Shown here piece by piece: positions 6,258 through 23,884 of a DNA stretch of 24,296 nt; position 1 is the stretch's first letter; every line of letters begins with the position of its first letter. The position numbers and the translations under genes are program-made. The notes under the pieces were generated by a model. It did no database searches. It saw only the letters and a program-made list of their open reading frames with translations, and had not been told where the DNA came from. The stretch is taken from IMG/VR virus record IMGVR_UViG_3300037245_003526, positions 1-24,296 of that record; one strand, 5' to 3'. Source of the stretch: a virus.

Positions 6258-6279
6258 GATCCTACTACTGCACCTCCAA

Positions 6280-7500
6280 TTAGACCAGACCCACAGGTGG
6301 TGCAAAATCAACTGCCTTTTCCTGATCATCAACAGAAACTCTTCTAGGTGCAGGTTCAGCTACTTCAGGAGATTGTACTGTTTTTCCAGGATACTTAGGT
6401 GGTGGTGTAAAATTATCTGCGTCTTCACTAATTCTTAAATGTGATATAGATTGGTTGCTAGTCGATGCAGGACCTGGAACATTATACATTTTATAAAGAG
6501 TCCTTGTACTTATAGAATTATCCTTACCACCTAATACATTTAAATATGAATTCAATGTAGGTCTATTATCTCCAGCAGTACCAGCTTTTTCTTCTACTAA
6601 TATACTATTATATAAACTACCAAAATCAATTCGTACATCTACTATTGATAATGCTTGGTTCCATGCAATGCTTTGTTGATCTCCACCCTTTATAACAGAA
6701 ATACTATTTATAAAAGCAGCATTAATATCATAAATTCCATTTGCCCTTACCTTACAAAGAAATGGCCATTGATACCCTGAATTATCTGCAGACCCTCTTG
6801 GTAATCCTAGAATTAGAATAGCAGCTAATGGTCCAACAATATACTTTCTAGTCATGTCAGGATCGCCTGGACTTGGATTGTACAGTCTAATAGTCATAGT
6901 ATATGAAGGTTCAAAAGCACTATTCTTCCAAACCTTAGGAAAGTCAACTCTTGCTCCAGCTAAACCAGCACTAACTACATTTAACATTTTTTTAGCAAGA
7001 CCAGCACCTGCTGATCCTGCTGCCTGTCTAGCTTTTAAACTTTCTTGAAGTTCCTGTAATTTTTTATGTCCACCTAAAGCTGCTTTTCCTATAAGAGAAC
7101 CTTCTCCTAAAGCACCACCAATATTTTTTGCAGCTTCTGAAATAGTTGAAGCACCCATAAATTGTGATATTTCAGCTAAACCAGAAGAAGCCATCCGAGT
7201 AAATTTATCTAGAAAACTCTCACCATATTCATTACTGAATGTATCTGTTGGAAATGCGTCTGCTAGAAATGCTATTTTTAACTTTTTCTGATTAGTAGGT
7301 AATTCAAAACCATGGGTTTTTAATAGTTTATTATATAATTCCATTCCTTTAGTTGGATTAAGACCAAATAATTGTAATCCTTCCTTAAAATTTGGTAAGC
7401 ATGGGGTAATAGTAGCAGTTGGCATAGTATTTTTAACAACACCAGCAGTCGTATATGATACTGGAGGCATTCCAGGTATAAAATCTATTATTACAGACAT
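6280..7500 (-). CDS. tail/baseplate protein encoded directly downstream of the tape measure gene (406 aa); possibly a T4 gp48/gp54-like tube-baseplate junction protein
   Basis: AAAAGGAGAAAA Shine-Dalgarno. Gly/Ala-rich central segment. The position after the tape measure gene parallels T4 29-48-54. The functional call is positional inference. Confidence 0.5.
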   Translation of the reverse strand: MSVIIDFIPGMPPVSYTTAGVVKNTMPTATITPCLPNFKEGLQLFGLNPTKGMELYNKLLKTHGFELPTNQKKLKIAFLADAFPTDTFSNEYGESFLDKFTRMASSGLAEISQFMGASTISEAAKNIGGALGEGSLIGKAALGGHKKLQELQESLKARQAAGSAGAGLAKKMLNVVSAGLAGARVDFPKVWKNSAFEPSYTMTIRLYNPSPGDPDMTRKYIVGPLAAILILGLPRGSADNSGYQWPFLCKVRANGIYDINAAFINSISVIKGGDQQSIAWNQALSIVDVRIDFGSLYNSILVEEKAGTAGDNRPTLNSYLNVLGGKDNSISTRTLYKMYNVPGPASTSNQSISHLRISEDADNFTPPPKYPGKTVQSPEVAEPAPRRVSVDDQEKAVDFAPPVGLV

Positions 7501-7513
7501 TAATTTTCTCCTT

Positions 7514-10500
7514 TTATGTTAACCTTCCTCTAAGAATTGAATCAACTGCTTCATCATAATATGGTCTTGGTCCAGATAAACCACCCGTACCACCACCATT
7601 ACTAACCTGAGCAGTTTTCTGAGAACTATCCACAAATGATGTTACTACACTACTAGCAGCCTGAGAACCTGAAATTACAGCTCCTGATAATTTATCAAAT
7701 CCTTCAGTTAATTGCTTGAATATTGCCATATCTTTATTAACACCCATTGCTGCAAGTGATTTTTTATCCATATGAAATTTACTTAATCTTTCTTTTGCCT
7801 CTGGCATTGTAGGAAGATAACCTTTTTTAGTAAGAATATTTTTCTTTTCAATCATTGCAGCAGTAACTTTATCAATTCCACCTTTAGCAGTAGATGTCAT
7901 ACCAGCAAAACCACCAGCAGCAAATTTACTATACGCTTTATTCATTTGCTCAAGAGTAGCCACGCCAGATGATTGAGCTTTCTCCTTAATATCTTTCCAA
8001 GCTAAAATTTTACTTTTGTTCTTTTTAACAAGTTCTGCAGCTTTCCATATTCCTGTACCAATAGAATTTTTAGTGTATTTACCACTAGTTAAAACCATTT
8101 CAGAAGCTCTGATAATATCATCAGGAAAATTCATAAGAACTGTATTTGTTAACATACCCAAAAGATTTATAGGAAATGGTAAATAAGCTGTTACTTTTTC
8201 AGTCATTGCTCCAGTGGTAACTAAAACTGATGTGATTTTCCTTTTGGCCTGTTCACTAAGTTGTACTCTAGCTTGTCGTTCTCTTTCTCTAAATTCATTT
8301 CCACCAACTTCAGCATATAATTTTTCTTCACTTTTAATCTTTCCTTCATTTATTTTTACTAAATATTTAAAGAATGTTTGTTCTCTTCTCATTCCATACC
8401 CATGCGGATCTTTTCCACGATATATACCTATATCACGTTTTTGCCTCATAAAATTAAGTCTAGCAGCATTAACAGTGACAAATCCATATCTAGCATACTC
8501 ATCCATATGCTCTTGCATAAATGTTCTCTGACCAATATTTATAGAATTTATAGTATCTTGATCTGATTCACCAATATGTTTTTGTCGTTTTTTCTGCAGG
8601 CTAGCAATACCCCTATGAATTCTTTCTTCATGTGCAGCTTTTACTTTTTCTTCTACAGGTCCTCGGGCAGCTTGCATAGTCCTAACACGAGTAACAGTAG
8701 CGGCTCTTAATCCTATATCTGCTTTTTCTCTTATAAATTTTTCTTTACCCCATTCTTTCTCTCGTGATTTTACTATAGCATCACCTATTGGTTTACCTAT
8801 TAAATAACCTAAACCTGCAGCTCCTGCAATTCCTAAAGCAGGACCAAGTGCTGCCATAAGTCCACCAGCAGGAATAGCTTTTAAAGCTGTAATTAAAAGA
8901 CCTCCTAGTCCCTTGGCCCCTCTTCCAAGAAGTTCAAATAAACCTCCACCTATTCCTTTAAACTTCATAAGCATTGGAAGTACCATACCCATTATAGGCA
9001 TTACTAATCTCATTAAAAAACTAGTAGTATCAGCAGTTTTTCTTCCTCGTCTTCTTAAATATCTATGAGATTTATCAGCAGTTCTATTTTGTTTTCGTAG
9101 AAGATCAATAATAGTATCAATCTTTTTATACACCTTCTGTGGAATTCTGCCAGGTCTAGCTGCTGGGAATAATTTTCTTTGTTTCTTTTCAGTATATTCG
9201 GCCTCAATTGTTTCTTCCGCTGCAGGTTTACCTTTCCATCCTATTCTTCCTAGCAAGCCTCTACCAGCAGCACCAGCTCTTTTTCCTCTTTCTCCCCATG
9301 CTTCTTTTGTTTCTTCCAATTCACTTGCCATAGTTCTTCTTCTAGTAAGTTGACGTGCCATTTCCTCTGGTAATACTTTTTGAGCTAATGCTCCTATTCC
9401 TTTTCCAGCAAGTCCAATAGTACCTTTATATGCAAGTGCAGCTACTCTACCAGCTATTGACCATGATTCCTTTCTTTCTATACCTTGTCTACTCATAGTT
9501 TTACCAGAGGTATATGCTAGTATACCAACCAAAGCATTAACAGCATCACTAGTATTTCTAGCTATAGCTGGTAAATATTCAGCAAGAAGATTTTGTTGAG
9601 AAAATGAAGATGCCATCATATCTCTGACCATTGATCCAGTAGGTCTTAAAGGTCCACCTCGTCTTCTAAACAAAAACCTAAATGGTGTCATAACCATTTT
9701 TTGTAAAGTTCTTAAACCATATATGAAAAATCTTTGAAATGGACCAAGTCTTGCAACCCAGTTTGCAAAAATAGTTCTGATAAATCCCATAGCACCGCCA
9801 ATAGGTGCAACAGCTTGTCTGGTACCAAATGTATTATCAGCAATTCTTTCAAGAGCAGGTCGCTTACCTGATACTTCTTCCATAGTATCTTTATAAGCAT
9901 CCATAGCTTCTTTAATAAACATCTTTCGATCAGCAATATTACTAATTCCTTTAGTCACAGTTCTCTTATTTACTTGATCGACAATGGTTGCTACAATATT
10001 TTTAACAGGAGTAATTACTTCAGCGGCATGTATTTCTGCCATACCCCCTTTTTTGACGAACCCTCCCTTGGCCATTTTAGGGATTTTTTCTTTTGGTTTC
10101 TTTTTTTCAAAAGAAAGGACACCTCTTAATTTTTCCCAACCTGCTCCAGCTAAACTCTTGAATCTGGATGTAACTGAAGATAAAGCTTTACCTAGTCCTT
10201 CTTTCATTCTACTAATCATATTTTTGAAAACAACTGTTTCCATCATTTTAGCAGTTGCATAACCAACTATTGGACTTATCTTACCTACAGTAGTAACTAT
10301 TAAAGCTTGTTTATTAACATTAATATCTTCACTAATTGCTTTAGCATATTCATTTACAGCTTGTGCTCCACCAAGACTAATATGTTTTACTCCCCTAGCT
10401 GTTTCAGCAGTAATATGCCTCATTCCAGAAGTAAGCGTACCGGTAGCATCAGCGAGATTTTTCAGTACCCTATCTATTGAGCTAATTGAACTTTTATTAG

Positions 10501-20201: not shown

Positions 20202-20576
20202 CTAATACCCTCCTTCTCCCTTAATAATTGTTATATTTTCAGGTACACTTCCTTCCTCTATTCCCTCATGACAAAGTGTAATCTCTGCACCTCCTCCTCC
20301 ATCACCTTCATCTGATGCTTGGAAGATTAATACTGTACCACCTCCTTCAATAATTTGTTTACATTGTTCATATTCTTCATTTTTATCAAAATAGTTTTCT
20401 TTCCATAATTCATCAAGCTGAGTAATAGTTTTTGCAACTTCTGAACCATGATCACTATATTCTACTTCATATACTGTAGTAATTGTTATAGGAACACTTT
20501 TAGCATTAGGATCCTTAATACCTAAAATAAATGAAGCACTTGATGAATTAGTTACAAAGTCTCCCTTGATTTTCAT
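20202..20576 (-). CDS. small acidic protein, paralog P1 of an N-terminally conserved family (124 aa)
   Basis: N-terminus MKIKGDFVTNSSSASFI. GGAGGGTGATAA Shine-Dalgarno. Translationally coupled to the upstream lipoprotein gene. Confidence 0.6.
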   Translation of the reverse strand: MKIKGDFVTNSSSASFILGIKDPNAKSVPITITTVYEVEYSDHGSEVAKTITQLDELWKENYFDKNEEYEQCKQIIEGGGTVLIFQASDEGDGGGGAEITLCHEGIEEGSVPENITIIKGEGGY

Positions 20577-21808: not shown

Positions 21809-22198
21809 TTAACCATTATAACCACAATATGTTTGAGATGTTACTTCATCAATTGTTATGATAATTCCTTTTTCCTTTAGTTGTTTTACCACTCTTTCTT
21901 TTAACTGAGAAACAGTTTCATCATCCTTCATTTGAAAAGGGGATATTCCAATTTGAATACAATCACCATCATAATCATGATAATTAATTAGATCATTTCC
22001 CTTGCATACTAATTCTCCCAATTCATACATTTCTAGAGTCTCAGTAGTTAAGGCAGGATTTTCCGGATTGTCTTCGTTATGAAGAATAACCAATTCTTTA
22101 TCATATTCTTTTTTAAATTGGTAATCCTCCTTCAATATACCCCACGCTACAAAAGATGTAGATGAACTATTTGTTACAAAATCTGCTTTTAATTTCAT
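21809..22198 (-). CDS. small acidic protein, paralog P2 (129 aa from the second ATG)
   Basis: N-terminus MKLKADFVTNSSSTSFV when started at the ATG at 22198. The upstream in-frame ATG at 22213 is followed by AAAGGAAAT, which serves as the Shine-Dalgarno for 22198. Confidence 0.6.
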   Translation of the reverse strand: MKLKADFVTNSSSTSFVAWGILKEDYQFKKEYDKELVILHNEDNPENPALTTETLEMYELGELVCKGNDLINYHDYDGDCIQIGISPFQMKDDETVSQLKERVVKQLKEKGIIITIDEVTSQTYCGYNG

Positions 22199-22238
22199 AT
22201 TATTTCCTTTCATTTTTTTAGTAAATAGACGGAATAAT

Positions 22239-22268
22239 GGGGGCAGATCCTAGCCTGGACCCACCCCC
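22239..22268. other. GC-rich hairpin (GGGGG...CCCCC enclosing a TCC/GGA inner stem) between tRNA-Ile and P2
   Basis: Read directly. GGGGG at 22239-22243 and CCCCC at 22264-22268. Unusual in this AT-rich context. No U-tract. Confidence 0.5.
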
Positions 22269-22279
22269 TCTCTTAGTAT

Positions 22280-22352
22280 TCATAACAATGGGAATCGAAC
22301 CCATGTTCTCATGTTTATCAGACATGTGCTTAACCAATTAAGCTATGTTATA
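22280..22352 (-). tRNA. tRNA-Ile (anticodon GAU), 73 nt, no encoded CCA
   Basis: Manual cloverleaf: acceptor TATAACA/TGTTATG (with a U1-G72 wobble), D arm GCTT-AATTGGTT-AAGC, anticodon arm CATGT-CTGATAA-ACATG, variable loop AGAAC, T arm ATGGG-TTCGATT-CCCAT, discriminator A. Confidence 0.85.
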
Positions 22353-22436
22353 TTGGTGCAGTTACGTTAATAACCGCAGGGTTACATCAAAAATGCTTTT
22401 CATTGAGTACCAATCTAAATATGACAAATATCCCTT

Positions 22437-22461
22437 TGCTCTACCGCTGAGCTACACGCCA
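22437..22461 (-). other. tRNA 5' half (acceptor strand TGGCGTG, then TA, then a canonical D arm GCTC-AGCGGTA-GAGC, then A) with no contiguous 3' portion
   Basis: Read directly as the reverse complement of TGCTCTACCGCTGAGCTACACGCCA. The downstream 85 nt cannot complete a cloverleaf. Confidence 0.5.
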
Positions 22462-22505
22462 GTAATTAAAAAATTATATAAACTTTAATTTATATAATTA
22501 TGTAA

Positions 22506-22540
22506 TGGCTGGCGTGACGGGATTTGAACCCGTGCATAGA
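22506..22540 (-). other. tRNA 3' half (variable region, T arm ACGGG-TTCAAAT-CCCGT, acceptor strand CACGCCA, discriminator G, encoded CCA) lying upstream of the 5' half
   Basis: Read directly as the reverse complement of TGGCTGGCGTGACGGGATTTGAACCCGTGCATAGAG. Its acceptor strand is a perfect 7/7 complement of the 5' half located 44 nt downstream on the same strand. Confidence 0.5.
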
Positions 22541-22634
22541 GAAAAATTATATGATTAAGTACCAACTATTGGGCAACAATGCATTTATAAGCTTGTTGGT
22601 TCGTAATTTAAAATAAGGATAATCTATCTGTGGA

Positions 22635-22652
22635 TCCAACATAATTGTTGGA
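22635..22652. other. perfect 7-bp stem / 4-nt loop hairpin (TCCAACA-TAAT-TGTTGGA)
   Basis: Read directly. It is part of a structured approximately 170-nt region (22547-22721) with further CCAAC/GTTGG pairings. Confidence 0.4.
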
Positions 22653-22721
22653 CAGAAATAATGAGGAATATAAGTATAAGCTTGAACCAATTTCAATAAT
22701 ATGTTCTCATCAATTAAGTAA

Positions 22722-23492
22722 TTATCCCTTAATTGCGCCATGTATGTAACTAAATATTTCTTTACCAACCTGACGAGATTCAACTTCAGTTCCATTTGCT
22801 CTTTGCCTTGACCTCTTTATTGCTCGAGCAAGTTTATCAATCCTGGCAAGAATTGCTGATTTCTGAGATGGGGAAACCATACCGCACCATCTGTGTGTTG
22901 AATATTCACCAATTGCACTATTCTCAACCCACTCTTTTATCTGGGCAGGATGATGATCAGTGGCATCGTACATAACCTTACTTTGCTGAGTTTTTTCAGT
23001 TTTCTGATCCTTAACCATATTATCATCCTGAAATACTCCTTCACCAATATCAGGAGCTTCTACCCATTTTATTCCAGGAGGAAGTGTAGGAATCTTGCTA
23101 TAAACATCCCTGAGTGTACTCAACTCATACTCCATTTCAAGAAGAAATGTAACTGGAACATTTTCTGCTATTGTAATTCCATCCACAGCTATGTCCGATT
23201 TAGCAAGACAGTTTCCACTTTCCTTTTGAAGCTTGGCATCCCAGAATTTTATGAAGCTCTCGGACATATAGTCAAGTTTATCCTGAACTGTTGTGGTGAT
23301 TTCCTGATGTTCTTCAGTATTCTCTTTTTGTCTGGCATCATCAAACATCCTTAAACTACGATGCTGACCATGAAAATGAGAGACTCTCTTTAAAAATGTT
23401 TGCTCAGTCTCAGTTTTGATTTTTTCTTTTGCTCCTTTGAGACTTCCTACCACTGCCAAAATTTCGTGTAAAACTGGTTTTTTCTTAGACAT
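22722..23492 (-). CDS. hypothetical protein (256 aa from the second ATG); compositionally atypical
   Basis: The ATG at 23492 (MSKKKPVLHEI...) is preceded by AAAGGAAAATTTAAA. The first ATG at 23510 lacks a Shine-Dalgarno. GC is about 40%, against about 29% for its neighbours. Confidence 0.55.
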   Translation of the reverse strand: MSKKKPVLHEILAVVGSLKGAKEKIKTETEQTFLKRVSHFHGQHRSLRMFDDARQKENTEEHQEITTTVQDKLDYMSESFIKFWDAKLQKESGNCLAKSDIAVDGITIAENVPVTFLLEMEYELSTLRDVYSKIPTLPPGIKWVEAPDIGEGVFQDDNMVKDQKTEKTQQSKVMYDATDHHPAQIKEWVENSAIGEYSTHRWCGMVSPSQKSAILARIDKLARAIKRSRQRANGTEVESRQVGKEIFSYIHGAIKG

Positions 23493-23524
23493 TTTAAATT
23501 TTCCTTTCATTAAATTAAAGTTGA

Positions 23525-23884
23525 TTAATCATGCTGAATTTCTATTCCTACTACTTTAAAACCATAAGCATCTTGATATTCAGATACAAAAGTATCAAGA
23601 GCTAGATACTTCATATAATCTGGTATATCTTCATAACCATTGTACATGGACGTCCATTCCTCTATAATAAAAGTATTTGGTTTTGAGTCCTCTTTAATAT
23701 CTGATCCATCCCAAAACCTCATATTTTTAGAAAATCCATGCCAATTATCGTTACCCTTAAACCATTCAATAAACTTACCGAATTGGTTTTTAAACTCTTC
23801 AATACCCGTATCTTCTTTTGTCTCCACTGTTAAAACAAAAGATGCAGAAGAACTATTTGTAATGAAGTCTGCTTTTGCTTTCAT
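23525..23884 (-). CDS. small acidic protein, paralog P3 (119 aa)
   Basis: N-terminus MKAKADFITNSSSASFV. AAGGAGGGAGGTGAT Shine-Dalgarno. Confidence 0.6.
   Translation of the reverse strand: MKAKADFITNSSSASFVLTVETKEDTGIEEFKNQFGKFIEWFKGNDNWHGFSKNMRFWDGSDIKEDSKPNTFIIEEWTSMYNGYEDIPDYMKYLALDTFVSEYQDAYGFKVVGIEIQHD

Follow-up and report, generated by a model that had tools for sequence, protein, structure and literature searches.

The DNA analysed here is the whole 24,296-nt stretch of the IMG/VR virus record IMGVR_UViG_3300037245_003526, hereafter the window. It derives from a tailed phage and encodes a T4-type baseplate protein, a gp25-like protein, a large terminase and an ATP-dependent ligase-family protein. 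On the minus strand, the gene for a DUF7873 protein is followed by a tRNA-like element and then by a canonical tRNA gene (Table 1). The tRNA-like element covers ~171 nt (window 22566–22396, minus strand), in which the T arm, the 3′ acceptor strand and an encoded CCA precede the 5′ acceptor strand and the D arm. It is probably a structured non-coding RNA gene of the YrlA, or bacterial Y-RNA, type, placed in a conserved two-gene module with DUF7873. The module is found in many tailed phages, usually inside or beside tRNA clusters.

Table 1. The tRNA-like element and its neighbouring genes. Positions refer to the 24,296-nt window; the element is on the minus strand, and its parts are listed 5′ to 3′ with descending positions.
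Feature	Position	Strand	Basis or remark
DUF7873 protein gene, 262-aa open reading frame	22722–23510	−	Pfam PF25283, E = 6.6e-70
Conserved upstream motif GAACCAACAAGCUUAUA (family consensus CCCnnCAGCUUUA)	22586–22602	−	~50 nt 5′ of T arm
Conserved A-N-U-A motif (AAUA in the window)	22570–22567	−	precedes basal stem
Basal stem, 5′ strand, GUUGGUACU-U-AAUCAUAU-A-AU	22566–22546	−	MFE fold and RNAalifold
UCUCU, 3′ strand of anticodon-stem-like helix; partner AGGGA 22435–22431	22542–22538	−	MFE fold
Variable loop AUGC	22537–22534	−	sequence
T arm ACGGG-UUCAAAU-CCCGU	22533–22517	−	sequence and Rfam alignment
3′ acceptor strand CACGCCA	22516–22510	−	sequence
Discriminator G	22509	−	sequence
Encoded CCA	22508–22506	−	sequence
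AT-rich linker, 44 nt	22505–22462	−	own hairpin, MFE fold
5′ acceptor strand UGGCGUG; 7/7 Watson-Crick with 3′ strand	22461–22455	−	sequence
UA (U8 A9)	22454–22453	−	sequence
D arm GCUC-AGCGGUA-GAGC with G18 G19	22452–22438	−	sequence and Rfam alignment
AGGGA, 5′ strand of anticodon-stem-like helix	22435–22431	−	MFE fold
Internal loop	22430–22426	−	MFE fold / RNAalifold
Basal stem, 3′ strand, with bulged U22406	22425–22402	−	MFE fold / RNAalifold
Conserved tail GAAAAG (family motif YGAAAG)	22401–22396	−	relatives
Canonical tRNA-Ile(GAT)	22280–22352	−	ARAGORN; Rfam tRNA 68.4 bits; ~45 nt 3′ of the conserved tail of the RNA

The two halves and the 44-nt spacer between them match, base for base on the minus strand, the layout given in a preliminary description of this DNA, and the acceptor strands UGGCGUG and CACGCCA do form the 7/7 Watson-Crick pairs claimed there. 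It is also correct that neither half can be completed into a normal tRNA, as ARAGORN builds none, even with introns allowed and thresholds relaxed. The sole call nearby, by ARAGORN and by Rfam at gathering thresholds, is the tRNA-Ile(GAT). The gene order is really permuted relative to tRNA, and the acceptor helix is conserved.

The minimum free energy (MFE) fold of the window element shows the complete design (z = −4.25). Its strand topology is permuted: the 5′ and 3′ ends of the RNA sit at the position of the anticodon loop and pair as a long bulged stem, and a variable linker closes the acceptor end. There is no anticodon loop. A helix of 3–7 bp resembling the anticodon stem is formed, and then both strands enter the long, covarying basal stem. 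In the window, UUGGUAC (22565–22559) pairs with GUAC-U-CAA (22410–22403) with one U bulged, and this helix is centred on the palindrome GTAC. The preliminary description had noticed that the flanking 14-mers TTGGTACTTAATCA and TTGGTACTCAATGA are similar. Their likeness is real, but they are not duplicated intron remnants; they resemble each other because both are strands of one basal helix around GTAC. The TATAAT-like hexamers of the spacer are not flagged by the promoter scan, and a promoter in the spacer is not supported. The spacer is a conserved hairpin, composed in the MFE fold of AUUA/UAAU plus a 12-bp stem, which lengthens the acceptor arm and shows compensatory changes in the close relatives L222–L224. 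The same promoter scan of the window found no separate promoter or terminator for the element.

Both borders of the basal stem carry conserved motifs, A-N-U-A (frequently AGUA) at the 5′ border and YGAAAG at the 3′ border. They are reminiscent of a loop-E/bulged-G module and may form one, judging from their sequences. The motif CUCAAUGAAA(A/G)G in the 3′ tail region of the element is invariant among close relatives.

A permissive Rfam scan of 22150–22850 detects YrlA (RF02553) at 22553–22415 on the minus strand, with 33.4 bits and an E-value of 2.2e-5. This is the only meaningful non-tRNA Rfam match of the element. In the alignment, the T arm, the acceptor-like stem and the D arm are in register; the acceptor loop is 49 nt versus 2 nt in the model, and the Ro60-binding helix of the model is deleted. 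YrlA is a tRNA-mimicking bacterial Y RNA bound by Rsr/Ro60, and its modules are by nature ordered as T arm, acceptor stem and D arm (Chen et al. 2014, PMC4201824). This natural order accounts for the "permutation" noticed in the window. The YrlA of Mycobacterium smegmatis, with an acceptor stem of 7 bp, is cleaved by RNase P both in vivo and in vitro and carries CCA, and its halves stay together within the Rsr complex (PMC4201824). Since tRNA-like YrlA RNAs have been reported in phages beside Ro60 genes (PMC4201824), and one such locus (L125) was recovered here as a control, the earlier remark that no description in phage was known does not hold for the class. What appears to be undescribed is the linkage to DUF7873 in phages without Ro60.

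The linkage was analysed with an alignment of 35 DUF7873 proteins (A1), along with which 80 viral loci and 16 genome-assembly loci were fetched. In the first relative, the viral contig L001, whose DUF7873 is 41% identical, the same YrlA-like match is located 130 nt past the DUF7873 stop codon; its acceptor stem differs in sequence yet is complementary. A sequence-only scan of the relatives for a T-loop motif followed by a D-arm motif, with pairing not required, yields 63 distinct elements, and 47 of them have 7/7 acceptor pairs. Slid controls show ~2 acceptor pairs on average and 6 at maximum. These numbers indicate that the permuted arrangement is far beyond chance.

A covariance model (R1) was built from 43 DUF7873-linked elements (alignment A3). 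R1 matches with at least 46 bits just 3′ of DUF7873 in 92 of 98 sources, and the window element scores 77.4 bits. Two of the six sources without a match are loci truncated right after the DUF7873 gene. The element lies 100–400 nt downstream of DUF7873, and the order of T arm, 7-bp acceptor and D arm is kept. When all flanking open reading frames (ORFs) of the 98 loci are clustered, DUF7873 is the sole recurrent neighbour. This conservation spans DUF7873 proteins that are 31–87% identical. ARAGORN places no tRNA over any of 54 paired elements, and a canonical tRNA is often present within ~60 nt 3′ of the element.

The module is also present in cultured phages: Rhizobium phage RHph_TM30 (R1 71.5 bits), Klebsiella phage KpLz-2_45 (70 bits), Ralstonia phage phiRSL1 (68.6 bits), Vibrio phage D472 (67 bits) and Gordonia phage Ziko (52.8 bits). 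Their elements sit in unannotated gaps or beneath spurious small ORFs. Short ORFs overlap the RNA gene in the window (22547–22795, minus strand), in L226 (2428–2523) and in L100 (3503–3712), and such ORFs are deposited as hypothetical proteins in Vibrio phage D472 and Gordonia phage Ziko. The ORFs overlapping the RNA locus are probably mis-annotations. The window itself has no close cultured relatives, as a DNA similarity search of INPHARED returned only matches to the neighbouring tRNA. An exact 27-mer search of IMG/VR gave no match.

Some loci contain two tandem tRNA-like elements: L048 (3405–3518 and 3560–3662) and L087 (3425–3528 and 3570–3651). Weaker second matches are seen in L095, L089, L091, L092, L099 and L225. 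The tandem elements at DUF7873 loci recall the YrlA/YrlB pairs of Ro60 loci. The module of DUF7873 and tRNA-like RNA is also observed on three contigs (L082, L083 and L097) binned to archaeal metagenome-assembled genomes labelled Promethearchaeota or Bathyarchaeia; these are either archaeal viruses or mis-binned phage contigs.

The fold is supported by covariation in A3. As the T and D stems were not chosen for pairing, their covariation counts are unbiased. The paired cells amount to 99.5% in the T stem, 99.7% in the acceptor stem and 95.9% in the D stem; slid registers reach only 33–48%. Three pairs covary in the T stem, and two D-stem pairs show compensatory changes. Cells with both sides changed number 252, versus 84.5 in shuffles, and none of 500 shuffles reached the observed value. 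The Levitt pair 15–48 covaries in 43 of 43 sequences (36 G-C and 7 A-U; G15-C48 in the window). This perfect covariation argues for a true tRNA-like three-dimensional core. G18 G19 and the T-loop UUCRANU are also conserved across the family.

The anticodon-stem-like helix has a family-wide mean of 4.4 consecutive pairs versus 1.6 ± 0.15 with permuted partners. At a fixed register just 56% of its A3 cells are paired; with a shift of 1 nt allowed, the helix is clear. For the basal stem, RNAalifold on 22 full-length relatives predicts 13 pairs, every one of which has compensatory changes, with a conserved 1-nt bulge. All four helices (T, acceptor, D and basal) carry compensatory changes. Among three close relatives, whose DUF7873 proteins are 70–87% identical, the T stem, the acceptor stem and the linker hairpin all show compensatory changes, and GCCA does not vary. 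In these relatives the element region is kept more strongly than the anticodon loop of the adjacent tRNA. Judging from this conservation with compensatory changes, the element is functional rather than decayed.

The acceptor end was surveyed in 80 distinct elements, of which 65 have NCCA after the 3′ acceptor strand and 73 have NCC there. In 79 of the 80 the acceptor helix measures exactly 7 bp and is 7/7 paired, and with the 5-bp T stem it makes a 12-bp stack (79/80). The linker, including NCCA, ranges from 7 to 147 nt with a median of 22.5 nt. It is unstructured in 44 elements (CCA in 41), has its own hairpin in 23 (CCA in 18) and is closed, continuing the acceptor helix, in 13 (CCA in 6). 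U is present at −1 in 42 of the 67 open linkers. Several members with a linker hairpin or a closed arm have CCA or CCU paired to UGG or AGG and the discriminator bulged out. The discriminators are mixed (U 32, G 23, A 19 and C 6).

A stack of 7 + 5 bp, a 3′ NCCA and U(−1) are the classic determinants for bacterial RNase P. The 12-bp stack and GCCA are both present in the window. By analogy with YrlA, and from these sequence features, many members of the family may mature to a two-piece tRNA-like RNA via RNase P.

The upstream protein gene offers few clues of its own. The true start of DUF7873 in the window is probably the second ATG, to judge from relatives of ~256 aa. A word search gives 63 homologues, and at 50% identity the family has 2,538 cluster representatives, each a single-domain protein of ~250 aa. 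The AlphaFold2 model has a predicted local distance difference test score of 91; Foldseek finds no informative match to this fold in PDB or BFVD. The sequence has no match in PHROGs, NCBIfam or the PDB sequence profile, and hhalign indicates that DUF7873 is unrelated to Ro60 (probability 0.2%). In full-text literature searches, DUF7873 is mentioned in no paper, and permuted tRNA-like phage genes are found only in the work on YrlA.

Ro60 and DUF7873 are distributed differently. Ro60 is found in 358 phage records, mainly of Mycobacterium and Streptomyces phages. DUF7873 is found in 70 phage records, from Vibrio, Rhizobium, Klebsiella, Serratia, Gordonia, Arthrobacter and Ralstonia phages and from cyanophages. 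The phages common to both lists are only those of Vibrio, Gordonia and Rhodococcus, and, counted by genus, no fewer than 61 of the 70 DUF7873 records fall in groups that have no Ro60 match. In the window, no TROVE domain is found among 20 ORFs scanned against Pfam, which include every ORF of at least 300 aa. The control locus L125 is a genuine phage Rsr/YrlA locus, where two tandem elements are located directly upstream of a gene with TROVE and vWA_Ro60 domains. They score 62 and 54.8 bits with R1, and 34.1 and 29.2 bits with Rfam YrlA. Immediately 5′ of both RNAs, L125 carries genes for an AAA ATPase and an ATP-dependent ligase-domain protein (6271–8653, minus strand), and these neighbours hint at a context of RNA repair.

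The facts above point to a known class of RNA, of which the DUF7873-linked, Ro60-independent members with their own stem motifs and encoded NCCA appear to be a new subclass. A pathway for it could be considered as follows. The RNA would be co-transcribed with DUF7873, or just after it, ahead of the downstream tRNAs, and would fold into a tRNA-like L-shape. In most members, a cut by host RNase P would create the 5′ end of the acceptor strand, and trimming of the trailer would stop at CCA. Such a cut would leave two RNA pieces joined by the acceptor and basal helices, as in the YrlA of M. smegmatis. Members with a closed linker hairpin may keep the arm intact, and the window element with its structured linker may belong to them. 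DUF7873 could bind the basal stem and the internal-loop motifs, filling the role that Ro60 has for Y RNAs, and the tRNA-like head could engage tRNA-handling factors during infection as a tether or a decoy.

It can be proposed tentatively, as a possibility on which we would not rely, that DUF7873 and the RNA form an unrecognised Ro60-independent phage ribonucleoprotein (RNP). The RNase P split would expose N73-CCA-3′OH on a non-decoding RNA. The acceptor end and elbow might then act as a decoy or sensor for host enzymes that attack tRNA, such as defence toxins, nucleotidyltransferases and nucleases, or might recruit tRNA repair or processing factors to the phage tRNA pool. An RNA decoy or regulator made from tRNA parts was among the options of the preliminary description; it comes closest to the evidence, and the function as such is something we infer from sequence.

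Several observations weigh against an RNA of YrlA type partnered with DUF7873. First, the YrlA score of the window element (33.4 bits) is below the Rfam gathering threshold of 69 bits. The Ro60-linked elements of L125 score like the window, so the gathering score does not separate phage members from non-members, and failing it does not exclude the window element. Second, the Ro60-binding motif GNCGAAN0-1G is not present on the 5′ strand of the element, unlike in YrlA. The similar-looking YGAAAG is found 3′ of the basal stem, on the strand opposite to that of the YrlA motif. Third, stand-alone elements with R1 scores of 67–71 bits lie in phage tRNA arrays (L145, 1994–2085; L216, 504–584, minus strand; L217, 4087–4168, minus strand), with no DUF7873 or Ro60 within the fetched loci. 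DUF7873 may thus not be obligatory, and the partner of these elements, if any, is elsewhere or different. Fourth, R1 can score tandem-tRNA junctions high when the acceptors pair by chance, as in L120 (64.6 bits). A high R1 score therefore has to be combined with a second criterion, namely that no tRNA is called at the site. When IMG/VR was scanned with a generic pattern of a T arm and a following D arm, most matches were ordinary tandem-tRNA junctions, with unpaired acceptors and without DUF7873; a few were stand-alone permuted elements that likewise have no DUF7873 (L125, L145, L216 and L217). Fifth, the linker of the window is a conserved hairpin in which C(−1) is paired to G73 and the preferred U(−1) is absent; RNase P cleavage is thus less certain there. 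Besides, we infer the RNA ends, the cleavage by RNase P and the CCA trimming of the element, and the binding of the RNA by DUF7873 is suggested by gene linkage, with a fold that is uninformative.

Another explanation is that the element acts in cis as a tRNA-like processing or stability element of the operon transcript and is not a trans-acting RNP RNA. RNase P cleavage would separate the DUF7873 mRNA from the tRNA cluster, or would define and stabilise the 3′ end of the mRNA, and DUF7873 would merely be the upstream cistron. There is a parallel in the mascRNA element, which defines and stabilises the 3′ end of MALAT1. The element always follows the DUF7873 stop codon on the same strand and often precedes canonical tRNA genes; it has features of an RNase P substrate (12-bp stack, NCCA and U at −1), and no separate promoter or terminator is detected for it in the window. 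However, a minihelix would suffice for such a role, yet the D arm, the 15–48 pair, the anticodon-like stem, the 13-bp basal stem and the loop and tail motifs are all kept. The same architecture is seen upstream of Ro60 in L125, that is, in a known class of protein-bound RNA. Tandem copies at some loci, and the closed acceptor arms in 13 of the 80 distinct elements, which would be poor RNase P substrates, do not suit a cis role either. It is accordingly rated as rather improbable.

A genuine circularly permuted or split tRNA gene, whose ends are joined or whose halves anneal to give a decoding, aminoacylated tRNA, is considerably less probable again. The permuted order, the encoded CCA, the perfect acceptor helix and the full D and T arms would be expected from it, and the window encodes an ATP-dependent ligase-family protein elsewhere. 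Against it, the element has no anticodon loop: in the MFE fold of the window, the strands run from the short helix into a ~19-bp stem. No consistent anticodon-like triplet is found, and with mixed discriminators and acceptor stems that vary throughout, the family shows no common aminoacylation identity. The termini pair as a long and mostly continuous helix, whose bulges are single nucleotides, and make no bulge-helix-bulge motif. To our knowledge, the bulge-helix-bulge splicing endonuclease that matures the permuted tRNAs of Cyanidioschyzon is not known in bacteria or phages. When the halves are joined artificially, ARAGORN accepts almost any junction with arbitrary anticodons, and this result is uninformative for such a tRNA. 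Of the functional permuted or split tRNA proposed in the preliminary description, the two-piece maturation is plausible and has a precedent in the YrlA of M. smegmatis (PMC4201824), but the product is not a decoding tRNA.

Two further explanations have almost no probability. Two-piece transfer-messenger RNAs (tmRNAs) called by ARAGORN have been described in marine phages (PMC9004378), and a permuted tmRNA gene has the same topology of T arm, 3′ acceptor and CCA, intervening segment and 5′ acceptor. The Rfam model tmRNA_permuted matches the element weakly, with 15.5 bits, far under its gathering threshold of 47. ARAGORN is able to detect permuted tmRNA but calls none in the window, and in a tmRNA-enabled run none of the 54 elements of the relatives was overlapped. 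Position 3–70 is a G-C pair instead of the universal G-U, the element has a real 4-bp D stem, which tmRNA is without, and only ~40 nt lie between the D arm and the basal stem, with no room for a tag reading frame or pseudoknots. A two-piece tmRNA was rejected on these grounds. A decayed remnant, left either by two tandem, truncated copies of a tRNA gene (with an intron) or by a deletion or insertion, would fit the similar flanking 14-mers and the known decay of phage tRNA arrays. It is refuted by an architecture that 92 of 98 sources keep, every helix showing compensatory changes, and by 14-mers that are two strands of one helix.

The surroundings of the RNA gene show further features. The tRNA-Ile(GAT) is probably co-transcribed with the RNA element. 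In close relatives the downstream tRNA has nearly the same body with a varying anticodon: GAT (Ile) in the window, ACA in L223 (1782–1854) and GAG (Leu) in L224 (2442–2516). In L222 (4179–4250) its anticodon loop is aberrant. From the sequences, this looks like anticodon switching within one phage lineage. The upstream motif GAACCAACAAGCUUAUA is invariant in the four relatives whose DUF7873 proteins are 70–87% identical. The strict CCCnnCAGCUUUA motif is seen at a near-constant distance upstream in 35 of 79 elements, and in many cases it forms the loop of a small hairpin. Its candidate roles are those of a promoter element, a processing site or a 5′ hairpin; by eye, the spacings fit neither a sigma-70 nor a sigma-54 promoter. 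Three paralogous small ORFs of 119–134 aa, all on the minus strand (20202–20576, 21809–22213 and 23525–23884), flank the block of DUF7873, RNA and tRNA. They share the N-terminal motif K(A/G)DF(V/I)TNSSS(A/T)SF and have no match in Pfam, PHROG or NCBIfam. A few related loci, L005 among them, have a homologue upstream of DUF7873.

Y RNAs have been defined by their partnership with Ro60. Here the tRNA-mimicking design is tied to a different and structurally orphan protein family, and this suggests that the tRNA-like head of Y RNAs is a module adopted by different proteins. DUF7873, with its ~2,500 diverged clusters, gains a concrete and testable candidate role as the partner of a tRNA-like RNA. 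The RNA gene is overlooked by current phage annotation or masked by spurious small ORFs. Where a D arm comes after a T arm and the acceptors are complementary, the arrangement should not be dismissed as an artefact of tandem tRNAs or as gene decay. As the module lies in tRNA clusters and has an end of the RNase P/CCA type, it may bear on how phages protect or manage their tRNAs against host defences that target tRNA.

Comparison with known systems places the element closest to YrlA. The permuted tRNAs of Cyanidioschyzon merolae and the split tRNAs of Nanoarchaeum likewise have the 3′ half before the 5′ half, with a short acceptor linker. They regain a complete decoding tRNA through bulge-helix-bulge splicing and ligation, whereas the genome here is that of a phage of bacterial type. 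The two-piece tmRNAs of Alphaproteobacteria, cyanobacteria and some phages are also encoded by permuted genes; in these the intervening segment is removed and the pieces stay paired. Species 1 and 2 RNAs of T4 (rnaC and rnaD) are, similarly, small stable phage RNAs beside tRNA genes, and rnaC ends in a hairpin like the T arm and acceptor; they differ in not being permuted. They are also undetected by the family model and were rejected as relatives. The R1 matches in T4 are only tandem-tRNA junctions of at most 31 bits with unpaired acceptors, and the DUF7873 matches in the phage collection include no Escherichia phage.

With YrlA, the element shares the module order, the tRNA tertiary nucleotides and a long stem made from the 5′ and 3′ ends of the RNA. 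The 7-bp acceptor is also that of the M. smegmatis YrlA, for which the RNase P cut and the CCA end are known experimentally. The differences are that the window element adjoins DUF7873 instead of rsr, with no rsr gene nearby; that its motifs are A-N-U-A, YGAAAG and AUYAGC..UGAR, with GNCGAAN0-1G missing from the 5′ strand; and that its NCCA is genome-encoded and its linker is long and, across the family, variable (7–147 nt). The Rsr-YrlA loci of mycobacteriophages, Streptomyces phages and L125 have the same permuted tRNA-like head, NCCA and 7-bp acceptor. Tandem pairs of elements occur in both sets, and the Rfam YrlA scores are similar (34.1 vs 33.4 bits). In those loci rsr comes after the RNAs, whereas here DUF7873 comes before the RNA. 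The two sets also have different protein partners, and the host ranges of their phages are largely distinct.

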